Source: Deltaproteobacteria bacterium (GTDB taxonomy: Bacteria; Desulfobacterota; Desulfobacteria; Desulfobacterales; JAABPS01). From it: a stretch of 62,246 bases of DNA. The stretch covers positions 1-62,246 of the forward strand of contig JAFDFT010000001.1 in assembly GCA_019309685.1 (NCBI GenBank), read 5' to 3'. A program made the position numbers and the translations under genes. Below, in pieces: positions 51,882 to 56,638 of this stretch. The first letter of the stretch is position 1. Every line of letters starts with the position of its first letter. The notes under the pieces are model-generated. The model ran no database searches. It was not told the DNA's origin and saw nothing but the letters and a program-made list of their open reading frames with translations.

Positions 51882-52087
51882 TACCCCTCCTTTTCTTCCA
51901 GCGGATATTCACACATTCCCTCTTTAAAATATCTGCAATAAAATATATTATAATGATCTTGCGGACATAAACATTCTTGTTTAGCCTTCTGATCTCTTTT
52001 GAAAATTATGTAATATCCGTAAGTAACCAGGATAATTAACAGACAGAGGAAAATTCCTACAACTATGCCTTTTTGGTATGGGTCCAT
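51881..52087 (-). CDS. single-TM protein (68 aa)
   Basis: IVVGIFLCLLIILVTYGYYII. Confidence 0.45.
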   Translation of the reverse strand: MDPYQKGIVVGIFLCLLIILVTYGYYIIFKRDQKAKQECLCPQDHYNIFYCRYFKEGMCEYPLEEKEG

Positions 52088-52638
52088 CCTATTTCCTTTT
52101 CGGTGTCTTTAAAGAGATTGTTGGTTATTTGCGTTAATTTTTCTGGTGAGTCTGTAATTAATAAATCTGTTTTATTATTACTAACAACCCGATAAGCTTC
52201 TATAAAATCCTTAACAAACCACTTTTCCTCAGATTCCTTCATATTACTACATAGAGCTGACCATGGGAATCTTTTTTCCATTAGCCATGTTGTTATTTTA
52301 TCGTCAAAATTTGGTTGCCAGGAAGCTCCCCGCTGCCGGATCTGACATAAAACCTCTGTTGCTTGTATTGCTGCCAAGGCTTCTATTGCTGGTTGTTGCG
52401 ACTCAATTGCTTTAACAAAGACGCCTACCGCTGGCATCCTGTTATAAATCCAATCATACATAACTTTTGTAAAAGCTTTCGCAACTTCTTCCATTGGAAA
52501 TTGTTTTAAAACTGTAAAATAAAGATTAAGTTGATCTTTTGTTATTTCTGGAACACTACAATTAATCTCAAAAGCTTTCATAAAAGTTGCGAACTTAGCT
52601 ACATCATTCTTTGATTGTCTCATTAATAAAATCCTCAT
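52063..52638 (-). CDS. hypothetical replication-associated protein (191 aa), possibly a helicase-loader type
   Basis: Based on position after the replisome-organizer gene only. No firm motif. Confidence 0.45.
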   Translation of the reverse strand: MRILLMRQSKNDVAKFATFMKAFEINCSVPEITKDQLNLYFTVLKQFPMEEVAKAFTKVMYDWIYNRMPAVGVFVKAIESQQPAIEALAAIQATEVLCQIRQRGASWQPNFDDKITTWLMEKRFPWSALCSNMKESEEKWFVKDFIEAYRVVSNNKTDLLITDSPEKLTQITNNLFKDTEKEIGWTHTKKA

Positions 52639-52794
52639 ATGGGTTTCTAATATTACCTTTTTTGTCGTTATATTTACCGCTTAATACTTTTGCAAAATTA
52701 GTCGGGCGCACCAACCAGAATAGATCAGCCGTCCAGCCGGTGTCGTTGTCACCCATTAAAAATTTACTCTTACCAACATATATAAAAAACTTTT

Positions 52795-52880
52795 CCCAAT
52801 TTTCTATAATCTGCCTTTTAGGATCTTCTCGCCAGCGCCCAATTTTCTATAATCTGCCTTTTAGGATCTTCTCGCCAGCG
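52795..52880. repeat. perfect 43-bp tandem duplication (2 copies: 52795..52837 and 52838..52880)
   Basis: cccaattttctataatctgccttttaggatcttctcgccagcg read twice in direct succession. Confidence 0.95.
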
Positions 52881-53435
52881 TGTCCTTAAGTGATTTTCAG
52901 AAGCGTCCGGCCATGATTCAATATGCGGAAGACTCGGTAATATTTTATGATAAAGTCCAATTATTTTTTTTTGTGGACAGGGAGGGGGCTTATACCCCTT
53001 TCCCTTAAGGGGTATATCTTCTTCTGCTTCTTCTTCTGCTTCTTCTTCTGTCTTGAGGATTTTCGGAGCGTCTGCGGAGGGACTACGGAGTTTACGCCTC
53101 GTCCACTCCCCTATTATTTCCGTGAATTTAGGAATAAAAACAATAACTTGTTCGTCATTAAAGGTTATTTCCCACTTGCCCGACTTTTGAATGTGTTTCA
53201 AACACTTCATAACGAGTGTGGATTGTCTTTTGTTTAACTTTCGACTGAGATATGATCGTGTTACGTTTAACTTCCAATCGTGTTTTGTTTTAAACTCCCG
53301 ACTGTAGATTTCTAAAACCCCAAAAAACACTAAATATCCATCAGCTCCAAACCTATCCATCAGGTCAAATATAAAAGGATCATCAAGGCTATCTGAGATA
53401 TGTTTAAACCACTTGATTTGACACCTCCAAAAAAC

Positions 53436-53508
53436 AGAAGCTCTCAGGAACATGATCGGTTGCGATACCGCTCTTAACATTACTGTTAAAAGATTCCTGA
53501 GAGCTTCT
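53436..53508 (-). terminator. 15-bp perfect inverted repeat (43-nt structured loop) followed by GTTTTTT; terminator or attenuator in front of the replisome-organizer gene
   Basis: agaagctctcaggaa (53436..53450) pairs with ttcctgagagcttct (53494..53508). On the minus strand the 3' arm is followed by a T6 run and then GGAGG. Confidence 0.45.
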
Positions 53509-53594
53509 CTGTCTTGCAAGTTTTATTAGTTTTACGCATTTCATCATTAGTTTCATATTCCCCCACTACTAAAACATTTTAAAAAAGTCAACAA

Positions 53595-53977: not shown

Positions 53978-54175
53978 TTAGAACAGCTCTTTCTGCGCCG
54001 TCCTCAAAAATTTACTTATTTTTTGCCGTTCTTCTTGAGTTGGGTCGTATAGGCCGGTGATTATCCGGCTGAAGCGGGCATGTTCTATGCCTGTCCCCTT
54101 AACTAAATCTTTGTTTCTCCAGCCATTTTTCCTAATGGCGCTTAATAGTTTGTGTCTATAATTTCTTACTTTCAA
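53978..54175 (-). CDS. Xre/Cro-type HTH transcriptional regulator (65 aa, TTG start)
   Basis: NKDLVKGTGIEHARFSRIITG HTH. GGAGGG SD 6 nt before the TTG. First gene of the minus arm. Confidence 0.7.
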   Translation of the reverse strand: MKVRNYRHKLLSAIRKNGWRNKDLVKGTGIEHARFSRIITGLYDPTQEERQKISKFLRTAQKELF

Positions 54176-54296: not shown

Positions 54297-54326
54297 TTGA
54301 CACCGTTTTTGGTTTGTGCCTATAAT
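54297..54326 (+). promoter_or_regulatory. sigma70-type promoter: TTGACA, 18-nt spacer, TATAAT
   Basis: Both hexamers are perfect (54297..54302 and 54321..54326), about 48 nt upstream of the first plus-arm ATG (54374), which has an AAAGGAGG SD. Confidence 0.7.
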
Positions 54327-54373
54327 AAGCCAAAGTCGAAAAGGATTAGCCTAAATCAAAAAGGAGGTTTAAA

Positions 54374-54571
54374 ATGTATTTTGCAATAGATGAAAGCACC
54401 AAAGAGGTGGTTGACCAAAACGGTGTAAGGTTTACAGCCGGCCAGTTTCAGGAAATAAGAGAAAGGTACGACAGGCTTAATAAACCGCTTGATATGACCC
54501 TGAGTTGCCAAAGGCTTGTACGTTATAGATATGATTGGGGAAAGCTCGCTAAATTTTATAACGAAAACTAA
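54374..54571 (+). CDS. hypothetical early protein (65 aa)
   Basis: Strong SD. First ORF after the promoter. Confidence 0.55.
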   Translation: MYFAIDESTKEVVDQNGVRFTAGQFQEIRERYDRLNKPLDMTLSCQRLVRYRYDWGKLAKFYNEN

Positions 54572-54746
54572 AAATCCCAACCACCAACCCAGCCAGACAC
54601 ACCTTCGGGAATGTGAAAACCCGGGAAGGCGAAAGGGTTTAAAGTCCATCCATCAGACCTCACAGGCTCAAGCCGTGATAGCGTGATGGGTGAAGAAAGG
54701 AAAGCGGGAGGCTACGAACCAACATTAATTTTTAAAGGAGATTAAA

Positions 54747-55013
54747 ATGCTATACGATTCAGATGGAAGAGACTCTATATCTACAGAAAGATTACCTGAA
54801 AGATGTGAACCTGACTATGAAAGCATGGTTGAAAGAATTAACAAAAAGATTGCAAAAACTTCGGCTTTTAAGGACGCAGCTTTGGACTATTTTGATGGGA
54901 AAAGAGCAAGCGGGAAAATGGCAGAGCTTATTGGCGAGTTGGTAACTGAAGAACGTCAGCTTTCGCAAGAACGATATAGCCTTATTAAACGCCAAGAAGC
55001 AGCTAAAAGCTAA
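54747..55013 (+). CDS. hypothetical early protein (88 aa)
   Basis: AAAGGAGA SD. Acidic and helical. Confidence 0.5.
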   Translation: MLYDSDGRDSISTERLPERCEPDYESMVERINKKIAKTSAFKDAALDYFDGKRASGKMAELIGELVTEERQLSQERYSLIKRQEAAKS

Positions 55014-55027
55014 AAGCAATAAGTAAA

Positions 55028-55327
55028 GAGGCTACAAGAACAGTGTGCGCCCCTCAGTGAGGGCAGCTATAGCAGGGACGGCACAGCCAGCGCGCAATGC
55101 ATGCGCCGTTAATATAATTGCTTGCGAAACTGAGCGACCTGGCGGGGGCGCATATCCATCTTGGCTGCGGGAATTAAAGCCACTACAGGGCGTAGGTAAG
55201 TAGCAGTAGTCTGGAACCTGACAAAAACGCTGCAAATTTAATTCCCGTAGCCATTAACAAGCAGGCTGCGGAGGCCGCCGCCGAGTGAGGTCGGCGAAAC
55301 CGCTGTGAAACGGTCTTCGTAGCCTAA
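55028..55327 (+). ncRNA. candidate structured RNA (about 300 nt, GC-rich, ORF-free)
   Basis: 17-bp helix 55162..55178 with 55237..55253 containing a single G-U that is only compatible with plus-strand RNA. Closing helix 55030..55041 with 55312..55324. Several GC hairpins, two of them with AGTGAGG loops. Confidence 0.35.
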
Positions 55328-55347
55328 CTATTAAGAGAGAAATCACA

Positions 55348-55452
55348 ATGGATGAAATCAGAGTAAAACTTGTCATTTATTATTTACAGACACGCACAAA
55401 AAGCTTTAAGGAAGCTTTAAGATTAGCTAAAGAGTTTATGGGAGAAACATAA
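55348..55452 (+). CDS. 34-aa micro-protein
   Basis: Hand translation MDEIRVKLVIYYLQTRTKSFKEALRLAKEFMGET. Weak SD AAGAGAGA. Confidence 0.3.
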   Translation: MDEIRVKLVIYYLQTRTKSFKEALRLAKEFMGET

Positions 55453-55465
55453 AAAAGGAGGAATA

Positions 55466-56638
55466 ATGGGAATTCAAGCATTAGAGAAAATCAAGGAGTT
55501 GATACCGGCTGAGGATTATAACGCTCTGTCTGGTATTGTTGGGAAAGACGTCATTTTTTTGGGCGAAAACGAGGCTTTTGCCTTAAAGGATAACGAGGGT
55601 GAAATTAGAGCCTTTAAACAGCGAGTGACGCTTTCCCACAAAGAAGGAACATTGATTCAACCCGTAAAGGGCGGGCCTTTCGTTATAAGCGCACAGGGTT
55701 ATGAAGTTTGGGCGGAAGCTGCTGGGGCTTGTGTAATCTTTCCTAAAGAGGTTCTTGTCGGGGGGCAATGGCAACCAAACCCCCATGTAGAACGGGACGA
55801 GACAAACAGACGAATACTCGCAGTACACGCAAGGGCTGTAGCCTTTCGGTTTTCTTCTAAGGGTATTCCCCAGGTGTCGGACTGGTCCACAATTTTTGAT
55901 ACTCCATCTTATCGCATGATAGACCTGTTGGCCAAAGCTAAAAGCACACCCCAGGCGTTCAGGTTGCTTCCTACAGGCGATAACCCAGATGGAAAGGGTA
56001 CATGGGCAGCATATCCGTTCGACGAAAGCATAACGCTGTGGATCAACACTTCTCACGATGAAGCGTTAAAGTGGTTTTCTCAGATCCTTAACAGAGAAAA
56101 GAAAGCCCTTGACTTCGCTCAGACATTTGCAAAAAGAAACGCCCTGAAACACCTTTCCGGCCTTCAAAAAGCACAATCAAACGTCTGGACTCTTTCTGTT
56201 CTTTGTTGGCGTCCCACCTCCGGAAACATAATTAAATGGGATGCTACTCAGTATATCAAACTTCAAGACAAGGTTGGCTCGCTGATTACCGGCAATGGTG
56301 ACGATTTTGCGCCCAATGTAAAGCAAATCGAATCGCAATCAGGACAGGAAAGAGTATCTGACGAGGAAGGCTTTGAAGGGATTGAAAAAGAGATCGATCC
56401 TGAAGACCAAGAGCCTGCCGAGACTAAAAAAGACGAACCAGAAACAAACAAGACTAATGCAGTATCATCCGAAGAGCAAAAGGTTATAAAAAATTATGAG
56501 GTAGCAAGGGACTCGTTTCCGGACGAATACGCCGCCGCTACAAAAAAATTAGGATTAATAGGGAAAACCCTGGCCATTGAAGACATGAACGCTATTTATA
56601 AAAGGGTTACGGACAGACTGAACGAACAGGCGGTATAA
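55466..56638 (+). CDS. hypothetical protein with acidic C-terminal tail (390 aa); possible recombination / ssDNA-binding role
   Basis: AAAGGAGG SD. The acidic tail DEEGFEGIEKEIDPEDQEPAETKKDEPE and the neighbourhood are the only evidence. Confidence 0.6.
   Translation: MGIQALEKIKELIPAEDYNALSGIVGKDVIFLGENEAFALKDNEGEIRAFKQRVTLSHKEGTLIQPVKGGPFVISAQGYEVWAEAAGACVIFPKEVLVGGQWQPNPHVERDETNRRILAVHARAVAFRFSSKGIPQVSDWSTIFDTPSYRMIDLLAKAKSTPQAFRLLPTGDNPDGKGTWAAYPFDESITLWINTSHDEALKWFSQILNREKKALDFAQTFAKRNALKHLSGLQKAQSNVWTLSVLCWRPTSGNIIKWDATQYIKLQDKVGSLITGNGDDFAPNVKQIESQSGQERVSDEEGFEGIEKEIDPEDQEPAETKKDEPETNKTNAVSSEEQKVIKNYEVARDSFPDEYAAATKKLGLIGKTLAIEDMNAIYKRVTDRLNEQAV

Follow-up and report, generated by a model that had tools for sequence, protein, structure and literature searches.

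The Early Operon and Its Gene-Free Stretches

The window, the whole 62,246-nt stretch of DNA that was analysed (contig JAFDFT010000001.1), belongs to an uncultured phage whose host is probably a member of the Desulfobacterales; the source MAG may not be that host, since binning is no proof. Two gene-free stretches, IGR1 and IGR2, flank the small gene ORF88 on the plus strand, downstream of a consensus early promoter (Table 1). Neither contained a credible ORF, and both were richer in GC than the DNA around them, in agreement with an earlier note on this DNA; the GC fraction of 200-nt windows was 0.44-0.53 within them and 0.31-0.40 around them. In a plus-strand scan, neither a second good promoter nor an intrinsic terminator was found between the promoter at 54297..54326 and position 55466, and no sigma-70-like or terminator-like site was present on that strand inside 54572-54746 or 55014-55347. 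The two stretches form a chain of four sense-strand structured modules, M0, M1a, HP and D3, which sit between ORF65, ORF88, ORF34 and ORF390, genes that would be co-transcribed.

Homologues of ORF88 were found in metagenomes (69 in total), and long non-coding modules adjoined the gene in most of the loci examined. The AF2 model of its product showed two long helices, a generic helical hairpin, for which no PDB fold match was significant and none was informative; deletions disrupt the gene in two further assemblies of this phage. A 31-aa ORF directly 3' of the D3 copy in the related locus L134 looks, by eye, like ORF34.

Table 1. Positions of the promoter, genes, gene-free stretches and structured modules in the window.
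Feature	Position	Strand	Description
Early promoter	54297..54326	+	TTGACA-18-TATAAT, 12/12 consensus; would drive the whole plus-strand arm
IGR1 (= module M0)	54572..54746	+	Gene-free stretch 5' of ORF88
ORF88	54747..55013	+	Small early gene, 88 aa, flanked by modules
IGR2	55014..55347	+	Gene-free stretch 3' of ORF88; carries M1a, HP and D3
M1a	55028..55160	+	Starts GAGGCUAC; long irregular closing helix
HP	55162..55253	+	93-nt three-way junction
HP P1	55162-55178 / 55237-55253	+	Basal stem
HP P2	55179-55183 / 55192-55197	+	Loop ACAGGG (55185-55190), invariant
HP P3	55200-55204 / 55229-55233	+	Loop AACCUGAC (55215-55222), invariant
D3	55263..55325	+	15-bp stem AGGCUGCGGAGGCCG / CGGUCUUCGUAGCCU, -28.7 kcal/mol
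ORF34	55348..55452	+	Small gene after D3; from the ORF list

Structure and Covariation of the Modules

The strong self-complementarity that the earlier note had seen in both stretches was borne out against shuffled sequences for IGR2, which none of 100 shuffles matched on the plus strand (z -3.0; minus strand, z -2.0), but not for IGR1 as a whole (z -0.5); IGR1 and some M1 modules folded no better than shuffles. The hairpin at 55155-55260 gave z values of -5.1 on the plus strand and -2.5 on the minus strand. The 17-bp helix described earlier, now P1 of HP, proved exact, its single non-Watson-Crick pair being G55167-U55248, and the motifs listed with it were all present (gcgca-atgca-tgcgc, cgccga-gtgagg-tcggcg at 55279-55296, two AGTGAGG and three GAAAC). 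The proposed closing helix of the whole second stretch (55030-41 with 55312-24) could be drawn, with a duplex energy of -15.3 kcal/mol and 2 of 12 positions mismatched, but was absent from the MFE fold. The idea of a single RNA of about 300 nt gave way to a chain of independent modules, which were found separately and reordered elsewhere.

M1a, HP and D3 share one plan, in which a long helix of 15-20 bp closes off an apex that is either conserved or freely replaced. The apex was replaced in the M1-type modules and in D3, and that of HP is a junction with two invariant loops; M0 differs in plan, being a leader with two hairpins.

HP is known in four variants, those of the window, G000:C475, L137 and L141. 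The comparative alignment suggested in the earlier note revealed compensatory changes: over the four variants, in a counting alignment that was fitted to the model and so favours the structure, 95.1% of the pair cells were paired and 7 pairs had changed on both sides. The same pairing was reached by 1 of 500 shuffles, and slid controls were 33-46% paired. The loops ACAGGG and AACCUGAC, which hold a 4-nt complement (CAGG/CCUG), were unchanged in all four variants while the stems varied freely, and P1 was 15-17 bp long, followed by the junction. Each variant contained 3-5 G-U pairs, which become mismatches if read on the minus strand, and HP folds stood out more on the plus strand (z -5.1 and -4.1) than on the minus strand (z -2.5 and -0.1). 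The earlier proposal that the plus strand encodes a novel structured RNA thus holds for HP, on the grounds of no Rfam match, covariation in the four variants and strand-specific G-U pairs.

The closing helix of M1a (about 55044-55062 with 55138-55154; GUGUGCGCCCCU.../...GGCGGGGGCGCAUA) comprises approximately 17-20 bp with small bulges, with G-U pairs on the plus strand only, and encloses a GC-rich, window-specific interior that holds the gcgca-atgca-tgcgc hairpin. In L135 (487-577) the M1a arms were nearly identical, with a coordinated extra U-A pair, around a different and shorter interior, and the closing stem GUGCGC.../...GCGCAUAACCAUUAA surrounded unrelated interiors in L135, L136 and L151. 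In L137, M1-type termini were present and the closing stem was missing from the MFE fold.

The stem of D3 (55263-55277 / 55311-55325) had escaped the earlier note. At its apex lies the hairpin CGCCGA-GUGAGG-UCGGCG (55279-55296), and two GAAAC motifs fall within the module. D3 was 96% identical to L134 2176-2245, where the substitutions (C to U, A to G) stay paired as G-U. Its stem shares GGCUGCGGAG... / ...UUCGYAGCC with the HP of L141, and the covariance model R2 matched the L134 copy weakly (18.5 bits); D3 is a paralogue of the basal stem of HP.

M0 begins with a C-rich, G-poor segment, followed by a small UUCG hairpin (about 54598-54615), the hairpin H3 (54647-54692) and a purine-rich tail ending in GGGAGGCUAC (54706-54715), after which comes the ORF88 SD (ribosome-binding site, RBS). 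It was 76% identical over 170 nt to L134 1737-1897, there directly 3' of the promoter; its 5' part also occurred in L137, and its 3' part in L141, L136 and L151. H3 adopted the same fold in four relatives, with compensatory changes in its outer stem when read by eye (CCAUCA/UGAUGG to CCGUCA/UGGCGG and UCACCA/UGGUGA). The covariation of H3 is claimed from these individual folds, as MAFFT/RNAalifold mis-aligned the 3' arm and gave a weak consensus.

Distribution and Exchange among Phages

The modules are exchangeable cassettes, which in related phages occurred in other orders or were absent. HP lies 3' of ORF88 in the window and 5' in L137; in C475 and L141 its neighbours are unrelated genes, the C475 copy being 83% identical to that of the window with unrelated flanks. 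L134 carried M0 and D3 without HP, and an M1-type module in L135 sat after AGAGGCUAAAA, at a place where L142 and L136 pass straight to AUG. Among relatives sharing ORF390, the module slot was empty or otherwise filled, and none of the four loci L130-L133, found through this conserved 390-aa gene, held a module; a GC-rich 300-nt stretch in L130 was not significantly structured. HP occurred once per phage contig, the source MAG having two copies on two different phage-like contigs, and was also found once in a 30.6-kb virus record and once in the 4-Mb MAG G531. All module copies were sense-oriented.

The HP and M1-type modules of the relatives end in a single-stranded CCAUUAA with the next RBS within about 10 nt, an arrangement seen at 10 module ends; in the window, M1a ends in ...AUAUCCAUCU, not CCAUUAA, and D3 in ...CCUAACUAUUAAG. 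A GGAGG-type RBS motif was present on both sides of some modules, as is expected at any intercistronic site.

The Rfam scan proposed in the earlier note gave no match at gathering thresholds over the whole window (Rfam 15). A permissive scan of 54300-55600 (E up to 10) returned only mir-7131, with 17.8 bits against a threshold of 74, and no module of nine related loci matched Rfam. The region had no blastn match among the INPHARED phages. Exact-pattern scans for HP yielded only the C475-type phage (L122) in IMG/VR, where the other matches were due to chance and failed the covariance model, and two chance matches in the JGI metagenome contigs; in the GTDB genome contigs, an identical C475-type HP was found in JAFDHL010000001.1, together with one chance match. 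The covariance models R1 and R2, applied to about 800 genomes of the same order or class, gave two weak matches, neither convincing: that in G046 was a plain palindrome, and that in G153 lay between convergent chromosomal genes (E about 0.3 after correction). A hammerhead-like reading of the motif CUGACAA was rejected, as the motif lies in a hairpin loop and not in a junction, and no ribozyme model matched.

Proposed Role in Early mRNA Processing

These conserved, covarying, strand-specific and exchangeable intercistronic modules most likely govern the cutting, stabilisation or translation of the early mRNA. The reading favoured here, at somewhat less than even confidence, is that they are cis-acting intercistronic processing and stability elements. 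The cistrons would be separated by cleavage of the RNase III type (double-strand-specific) or of the RNase E type (single-strand-specific, at the A/U-rich tail), the upstream piece of mRNA would retain a protective 3' hairpin, and the downstream cistron would begin with a short open A/U-rich leader and its RBS. The source MAG encodes an RNase III homologue. The HP loops ACAGGG and AACCUGAC are left unexplained by pure processing, because neither RNase III nor RNase E requires invariant loops at its sites; they may point to an additional sequence-specific partner, and HP may accumulate as an RNA of about 95 nt.

The early genes of phage T7 are separated by the RNase III processing hairpins R0.3-R1.3, which the modules resemble in being long irregular hairpins that separate small cistrons in a polycistronic early operon with a strong promoter, interrelated within the operon and ending just 5' of the next RBS, with a 3' hairpin that would remain on the upstream message. 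There is, however, no sequence relation, and cleavage is here a prediction; R0.3-R1.3 are bubble hairpins, HP a three-way junction whose loops are invariant, and the present modules, unlike those of T7, have interiors open to replacement and are shuffled from phage to phage. The T7-type position, a hairpin between cistrons of one early transcript, was found here for genes that are presumably co-transcribed. Compared with the roughly two helical turns, usually with an internal loop, of the T7 type, the helices measured about 17-20 bp in M1a, 15 bp in D3 and 15-17 bp in HP P1, the last being shorter than two turns unless stacked on P2 or P3. The link between T7 and RNase III has been mentioned in the literature (PMC4858673).

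A second likeness is to the PeSLs of T4-type phages, in which an early promoter is combined with a terminator-like stem-loop and which mediate gene shuffling (PMC2839356, PMC4122927). Like the modules, PeSLs are intergenic and conserved; they sit beside small, variable early genes and delimit the segments that were inserted, deleted or replaced between one related phage and another (PMC2839356, PMC4122927). The modules differ in being much larger, in showing covariation at the RNA level and in having no promoter- or terminator-like site on the plus strand, so that the PeSL unit of early promoter joined to terminator-like stem-loop was not found in them.

Alternative Explanations

An appreciably less probable view has HP, perhaps along with other modules, acting in trans as a small RNA that is excised from the early mRNA and binds a specific partner, of host or phage origin, through its invariant loops. 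It draws on the constancy of those loops in four variants with freely changing stems, and on the downstream gene, which differs in every copy, so that HP is not tied to one gene. HP also lies among small early accessory genes, a kind that often counters host defences, and its long P1 would protect both ends. At the same guarded level, HP could act as a decoy that engages an RNA-binding or defence protein of the host, regulate host mRNAs, or associate with itself through CAGG/CCUG. Against this, the loops had no complement of at least 10 nt elsewhere in the phage and no candidate partner was identified, HP has neither promoter nor terminator of its own, and both loops of the putative loop-loop pairing are invariant. 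An origin as mobile DNA is improbable; the modules would then be palindromes of the MITE or REP kind, bounded by terminal inverted repeats, that have spread among phage genomes and have no RNA function of their own. Such an origin would account for the 17-bp terminal inverted repeats of HP, its occurrence in unrelated flanks at 78-83% identity, the conserved ends (GGCUAC / GGCUGC ... GUAGCC-AUUAA) and a presence that varies between related phages, one site appearing filled in L135 and empty in L142 and L136. HP was, however, single-copy in each genome or record, with no multicopy burst and no convincing copy in about 800 other genomes; every copy was in sense orientation, no target-site duplication was evident at the HP borders in the window or in C475, and no transposase lies near the modules. 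Moreover, substitutions in the HP arms that give G-U on the plus strand would be G-T or A-C mismatches in DNA, and the compensatory changes and invariant loops indicate selection on RNA. ERIC/IRU, Correia/NEMIS and REP/BIME are likewise units of about 100 nt with inverted-repeat ends that lie inside operons and form RNA hairpins, and their transcripts affect mRNA processing and stability; they are multicopy and occur in both orientations, whereas HP is single-copy, sense and seen only in phages. Somewhat more improbable again is a riboswitch-like cis-regulator, sensing a ligand or protein and controlling translation of the gene directly downstream. Purine riboswitches form a three-way junction with kissing loops, HP has such a junction with conserved loops that could kiss, and it ends 5-10 nt 5' of the RBS in L137, L141 and C475. 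Yet the four copies precede four unrelated genes, D3 intervenes before the next gene in the window, the RBS is never within the structure, and a P1 of 15-17 bp is far too stable for switching; neither a consistent class of downstream gene nor a platform overlapping P1 was found. The likeness of HP to the purine riboswitch aptamer and the phi29 pRNA is architectural only (a 5'/3' helix with two hairpins and CAGG/CCUG loops): Rfam gave no match, riboswitches have a far shorter P1, no consistent gene follows, and the phage is not phi29-like.

The other readings concern single features of the region. The 10-bp complementarity of 54709-54718 with 55316-55325, noted earlier, is real and perfect (-20.5 kcal/mol), and it had been suggested that this pairing, or that of 55030-41 with 55316-25, encloses or exposes the 88-aa ORF. 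This is very unlikely, given that the 15-bp D3 stem (-28.7 kcal/mol) already occupies the 3' strand. The long-range duplex weakens in L134, from -20.5 to -11.1 kcal/mol, where the local stem remains at -27.4, and in L141 the 3' arm of HP covaries with its own 5' arm (-25.0) rather than with the upstream GGCUAC (-6.5 kcal/mol); the complementarity arises from the motif common to all module borders. In type I CRISPR repeats a handle of the form (A)AACCG or GAAAC comes after a GC-rich stem, and the hairpin cgccgagtgaggtcggcg with its aaaccg bears a loose likeness to them, which had led to its reading as an RNA anti-CRISPR (Racr) that mimics a solitary repeat. Racrs, which occur as solitary repeat units between viral genes, resemble a CRISPR repeat in sequence and structure, normally one of the host's subtype (PMC10651486). 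They belong with hosts that carry CRISPR-Cas and are expressed as small RNAs, often from their own promoter directly upstream. The hairpin is likewise intergenic in a phage early operon, and the modules share with RNA anti-CRISPRs (PMC10651486) their nature as small structured non-coding elements near early accessory genes. This reading is nevertheless extremely doubtful: no array-like repeat of this sequence was found in 401 genomes of the same order, and no array or Cas1 in the source MAG, which is 87% complete (G001, of the same genus, has Cas1 with no array on that short contig). The 22-mer 55279-55300, with up to 3 mismatches, occurred at most once per genome, with 4 singletons against about 17 for the reversed control. 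The hairpin also lacks a promoter of its own between 54326 and 55466 on the plus strand, and as the tip of a 15-bp stem homologous to HP P1 it would be buried. The least credible proposal is a structured replication origin, to which the GC-rich, palindromic character of the region and its closeness to the control region had lent support. An O-like initiator (52818-53519) lies instead on the other, leftward arm, where it and its partner gene occupy 52063-53519, close relatives of the neighbouring conserved genes have no modules beside them, and the strand-specific G-U pairs point to RNA.

Significance

Phage early operons concentrate host take-over and anti-defence functions, and nearly all attention has been directed to their small proteins. 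In the present operon, which is strongly promoted, about 500 nt are devoted to conserved RNA structure, and phages exchange a small set of RNA modules, alike at their ends, without regard to the genes on either side. Should the modules serve as signals for processing and stability, as favoured here, they would extend a T7-like segmentation of mRNA to an unrelated, uncultured group of phages whose hosts are anaerobic bacteria of sediments. A trans-acting HP would represent a new class of phage small RNA with a defined and testable fold. HP, for which a covariance model has been built, is in either case a clean candidate for founding a new RNA family. It might even be the first member of a class of trans-acting three-way-junction sRNAs cut at the conserved module borders, whose two invariant loops would bind a host factor, for instance as a decoy for a protein of defence or RNA surveillance, or would drive self-assembly. 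This is a minority possibility that, if true, would make the modules 'RNA cassettes' which phages swap as they swap genes, with processing ends in common, as a non-coding counterpart of moron exchange.

The early operon and its two gaps

The window, which is the whole 62-kb contig C123 of the 3.6-Mb metagenome-assembled genome (MAG), reads as a phage genome, and the two GC-rich gaps IGR1 and IGR2 are located in its rightward arm. Since neither a terminator-like site nor a further good promoter was found on the plus strand from the early promoter up to the conserved 390-aa gene, both gaps are predicted to be transcribed within the early operon. In relatives, the 390-aa gene is found directly behind the promoter or behind other small genes. 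On one contig carrying such a relative (L130, 3330-3620), a 300-nt GC-rich and apparently non-coding segment lies directly behind the early promoter; its sequence is unrelated to the window modules and its fold is not significant (z −1.2). The replication-initiator gene contains a 43-bp perfect tandem duplication (window 52795-52880) that is not fixed. Two other assemblies represent this phage: in L139 only one copy is present and another 50 nt are missing, and in L138 152 nt are missing at this site, with 0 mismatches to the window outside such differences.

Features of the early region and of the RNA modules
Feature	Position	Strand	Remarks
Small Xre-type regulator	53978-54175	minus	leftward arm
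O-like replication initiator			leftward arm
Promoter TTGACA-18-TATAAT, perfect	54297-54326		faces right
ORF65			first in rightward arm
IGR1 (module M0)	54572-54746		76% identical to L134 1737-1897, there directly behind promoter
ORF88	54747-55013		between IGR1 and IGR2
IGR2	55014-55347		holds the three modules below
M1a	55028-55160		L135: 5' and 3' arms almost identical, interior different and shorter
HP	55162-55253		four variants: window, C475, L137, L141
D3	55263-55325		96% identical to L134 2176-2245
ORF34			follows IGR2
390-aa gene			follows ORF34
Rad50-like ATPase			follows 390-aa gene

Folding and conservation of HP

A novel structured RNA of about 300 nt had been proposed in the earlier note, and all the elements listed there were read from the sequence where it had placed them, including the GC-rich gaps (0.44-0.53 versus 0.31-0.40 nearby) and the 17-bp helix (55162-55178 with 55237-55253), whose sole wobble is G55167-U55248. 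Compared with dinucleotide shuffles, the plus strand of IGR2 folded better (z −3.0, 0 of 100 as good) and the minus strand less so (z −2.0). The HP hairpin alone gave z values of −5.1 and −2.5 for the plus and minus strands, respectively; IGR1 as a whole was not exceptional (z −0.5). Two mismatches occur in the supposed closing helix, which is missing from the minimum-free-energy (MFE) fold, and a 15-bp stem (55263-55277 with 55311-55325, −28.7 kcal/mol) had been overlooked.

A DNA search of the MAG revealed a second copy of 55161-55253 on its other phage-like contig, C475, 83% identical and with unrelated flanks; it, too, is situated between small genes, on the downstream side of a divergent regulator/promoter pair. 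IMG/VR record 3300033153_010544 and a contig of a 'Deltaproteobacteria bacterium' MAG each have an identical copy of the C475 type. Immediately 3' of HP on C475 (L002 1612-1767) lies a 51-aa, strongly hydrophobic ORF (MIPILLLGILIGSMLTAISLFLWGE...) that could encode a small membrane protein. Neither scanning IMG/VR, JGI metagenomes and GTDB contigs for sequence patterns nor searching about 800 genomes of the same order or class with covariance models gave a further HP variant. Protein look-ups for homologues of ORF88 and of a neighbouring small gene gave short metagenome contigs (L134-L137, L141, L142, L151-L157), two of which carry HP variants: L137 840-938 (65 bits), upstream of an ORF88 homologue, and L141 434-525 (56 bits), with unrelated genes on both sides. 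Each searched record contained HP only once, and its orientation was always sense.

The HP consensus comprises three helices: P1 of 15-17 bp, a short P2 with loop ACAGGG and P3 with loop GGAACCUGAC. In the model-fitted alignment of only four sequences, 95.1% of pair cells are standard and 7 of the 26 pairs are changed on both sides, values that a single one of 500 column shuffles reached; when the partners were shifted by 1-3 columns, pairing fell to 33-46%. Only when read on the plus strand do the stem substitutions between the window and C475 preserve wobble pairing or compensate for each other, and the 3-5 G-U pairs of each copy would turn into A-C mismatches on the minus strand. Both loop motifs are invariant and contain a 4-nt complement (CAGG/CCUG) through which they might make contact. 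The P3-loop 9-mer GAACCUGAC reappears in the same orientation at window 54807-54815, within the conserved CEPDYE-coding part of ORF88, probably by coincidence. The finding is real and more than chance, and for HP the core reading, a novel structured RNA, is right; the idea of a single RNA, and that of a switch enclosing ORF88, did not hold, the RNA being four shuffled modules.

Separable modules and their borders

Related contigs show that the two gaps are concatenations of separable modules. Parts of M0 recur in L137, L141, L136 and L151, and its hairpin H3 (54647-54692) adopts a similar fold in every relative that carries it; the outer stem CCAUCA/UGAUGG changes to CCGUCA/UGGCGG and to UCACCA/UGGUGA, a comparison made by eye, the automatic alignment having been poor. 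The M1a arms of L135 include a coordinated extra U-A pair. The M1a closing stem ((G)UGCGC... / ...GCGCAUAACCAUUAA) also closes four other modules with unrelated interiors and, as judged by eye, one in L151; L137 has M1a-type termini, but the stem is not formed in its MFE fold. Since the D3 stem (GGCUGCGGAG... / ...UUCGUAGCC) resembles the basal stem of HP, above all that of L141, and is weakly matched by the HP covariance model R2, D3 is a paralogue of HP whose tip is simple. Another non-coding module, not in the window and without an Rfam match, recurs next to ORF88 homologues (L135 847-1025, L152 ~2340-2530, L156 ~2350-2420), with the common blocks GAAAAACCGUGCAAGCGRCCUGU, GGCGACAUC, GGUCACUG and ACAUGCUGCGGA.

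The 3' terminus of HP and of M1-type modules is ...CCAUUAA; GGAGG and a start codon come next, within about 10 nt, an arrangement found ten times in the small related loci. The motif (G/A)GAGGCUA(C) stands before modules. In L142 and L136, AGAGGCUAAA leads straight into AUG, whereas in L135 an M1-type module of ~180 nt, with its own ribosome-binding site, is inserted between AGAGGCUAAA and the gene. Given this filled or empty slot and the differing arrangements around the 390-aa gene, the modules behave as cassettes in an accessory slot of variable content.

ORF88

The ORF88 family has 69 metagenomic homologues. Its AF2 model shows two long helices, with the N-terminus disordered, and gave no significant match in the PDB. 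ORF88 is interrupted in both other assemblies of the phage, by a 28-nt deletion and a lost 7-nt repeat (L138 2641-2727) and by replacement of 114 nt with 9 (L139 2647-2657), whereas IGR2 is the same in the two. The changes reflect either population variation in a dispensable gene or errors of assembly. Neighbourhood is the only observed link between ORF88 and the RNA modules. In L156, a called 153-aa ORF adjoining the ORF88 homologue contains a tRNA-model match above the gathering score (2729-2845, 31.3 bits) whose anticodon arm carries a 52-nt insert.

Alternative readings

The long-range pairing of 54709-18 with 55316-25 (−20.5 kcal/mol), from which the switch had been proposed, competes with the much stronger local D3 stem; in L134 it weakens to −11.1 while the local stem keeps −27.4, and in L141 the HP 3' arm has changed to fit its own 5' arm and not the upstream GGCUAC. 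The complementarity arises incidentally from the common border motif. A hairpin had also been likened to a CRISPR repeat, the similarity that defines RNA anti-CRISPRs (Racrs; PMC10651486); neither an array nor Cas1 is present in the MAG, and none of 401 same-order genomes contains the 22-mer more than once when up to three mismatches are allowed. The suggestion of a replication origin is not supported, as the replication genes sit on the other arm. An Rfam scan matched no family to the modules. A purely DNA-level mobile palindrome is unlikely because of the single copies, constant orientation and RNA-type substitutions.

Proposed role

The plus-strand structure is conserved and intercistronic in a strongly promoted early operon, the closing helices are long, and a conserved single-stranded A/U-rich tail lies directly 5' of each ribosome-binding site. 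The best-fitting explanation is that the modules act in cis, where they may segment the mRNA, protect its 3' ends and influence translation of the next cistron. RNase III sites lie between the T7 early genes and provide the analogue for this role; an RNase III gene is present in the MAG. Cis processing leaves the invariant HP loops unexplained, and a second, sequence-specific role of HP, such as a released small RNA binding a partner, is a minority prospect, at about one chance in four. The modules constitute a new set of RNA families of modest breadth, with a function that we infer to be exerted in cis.
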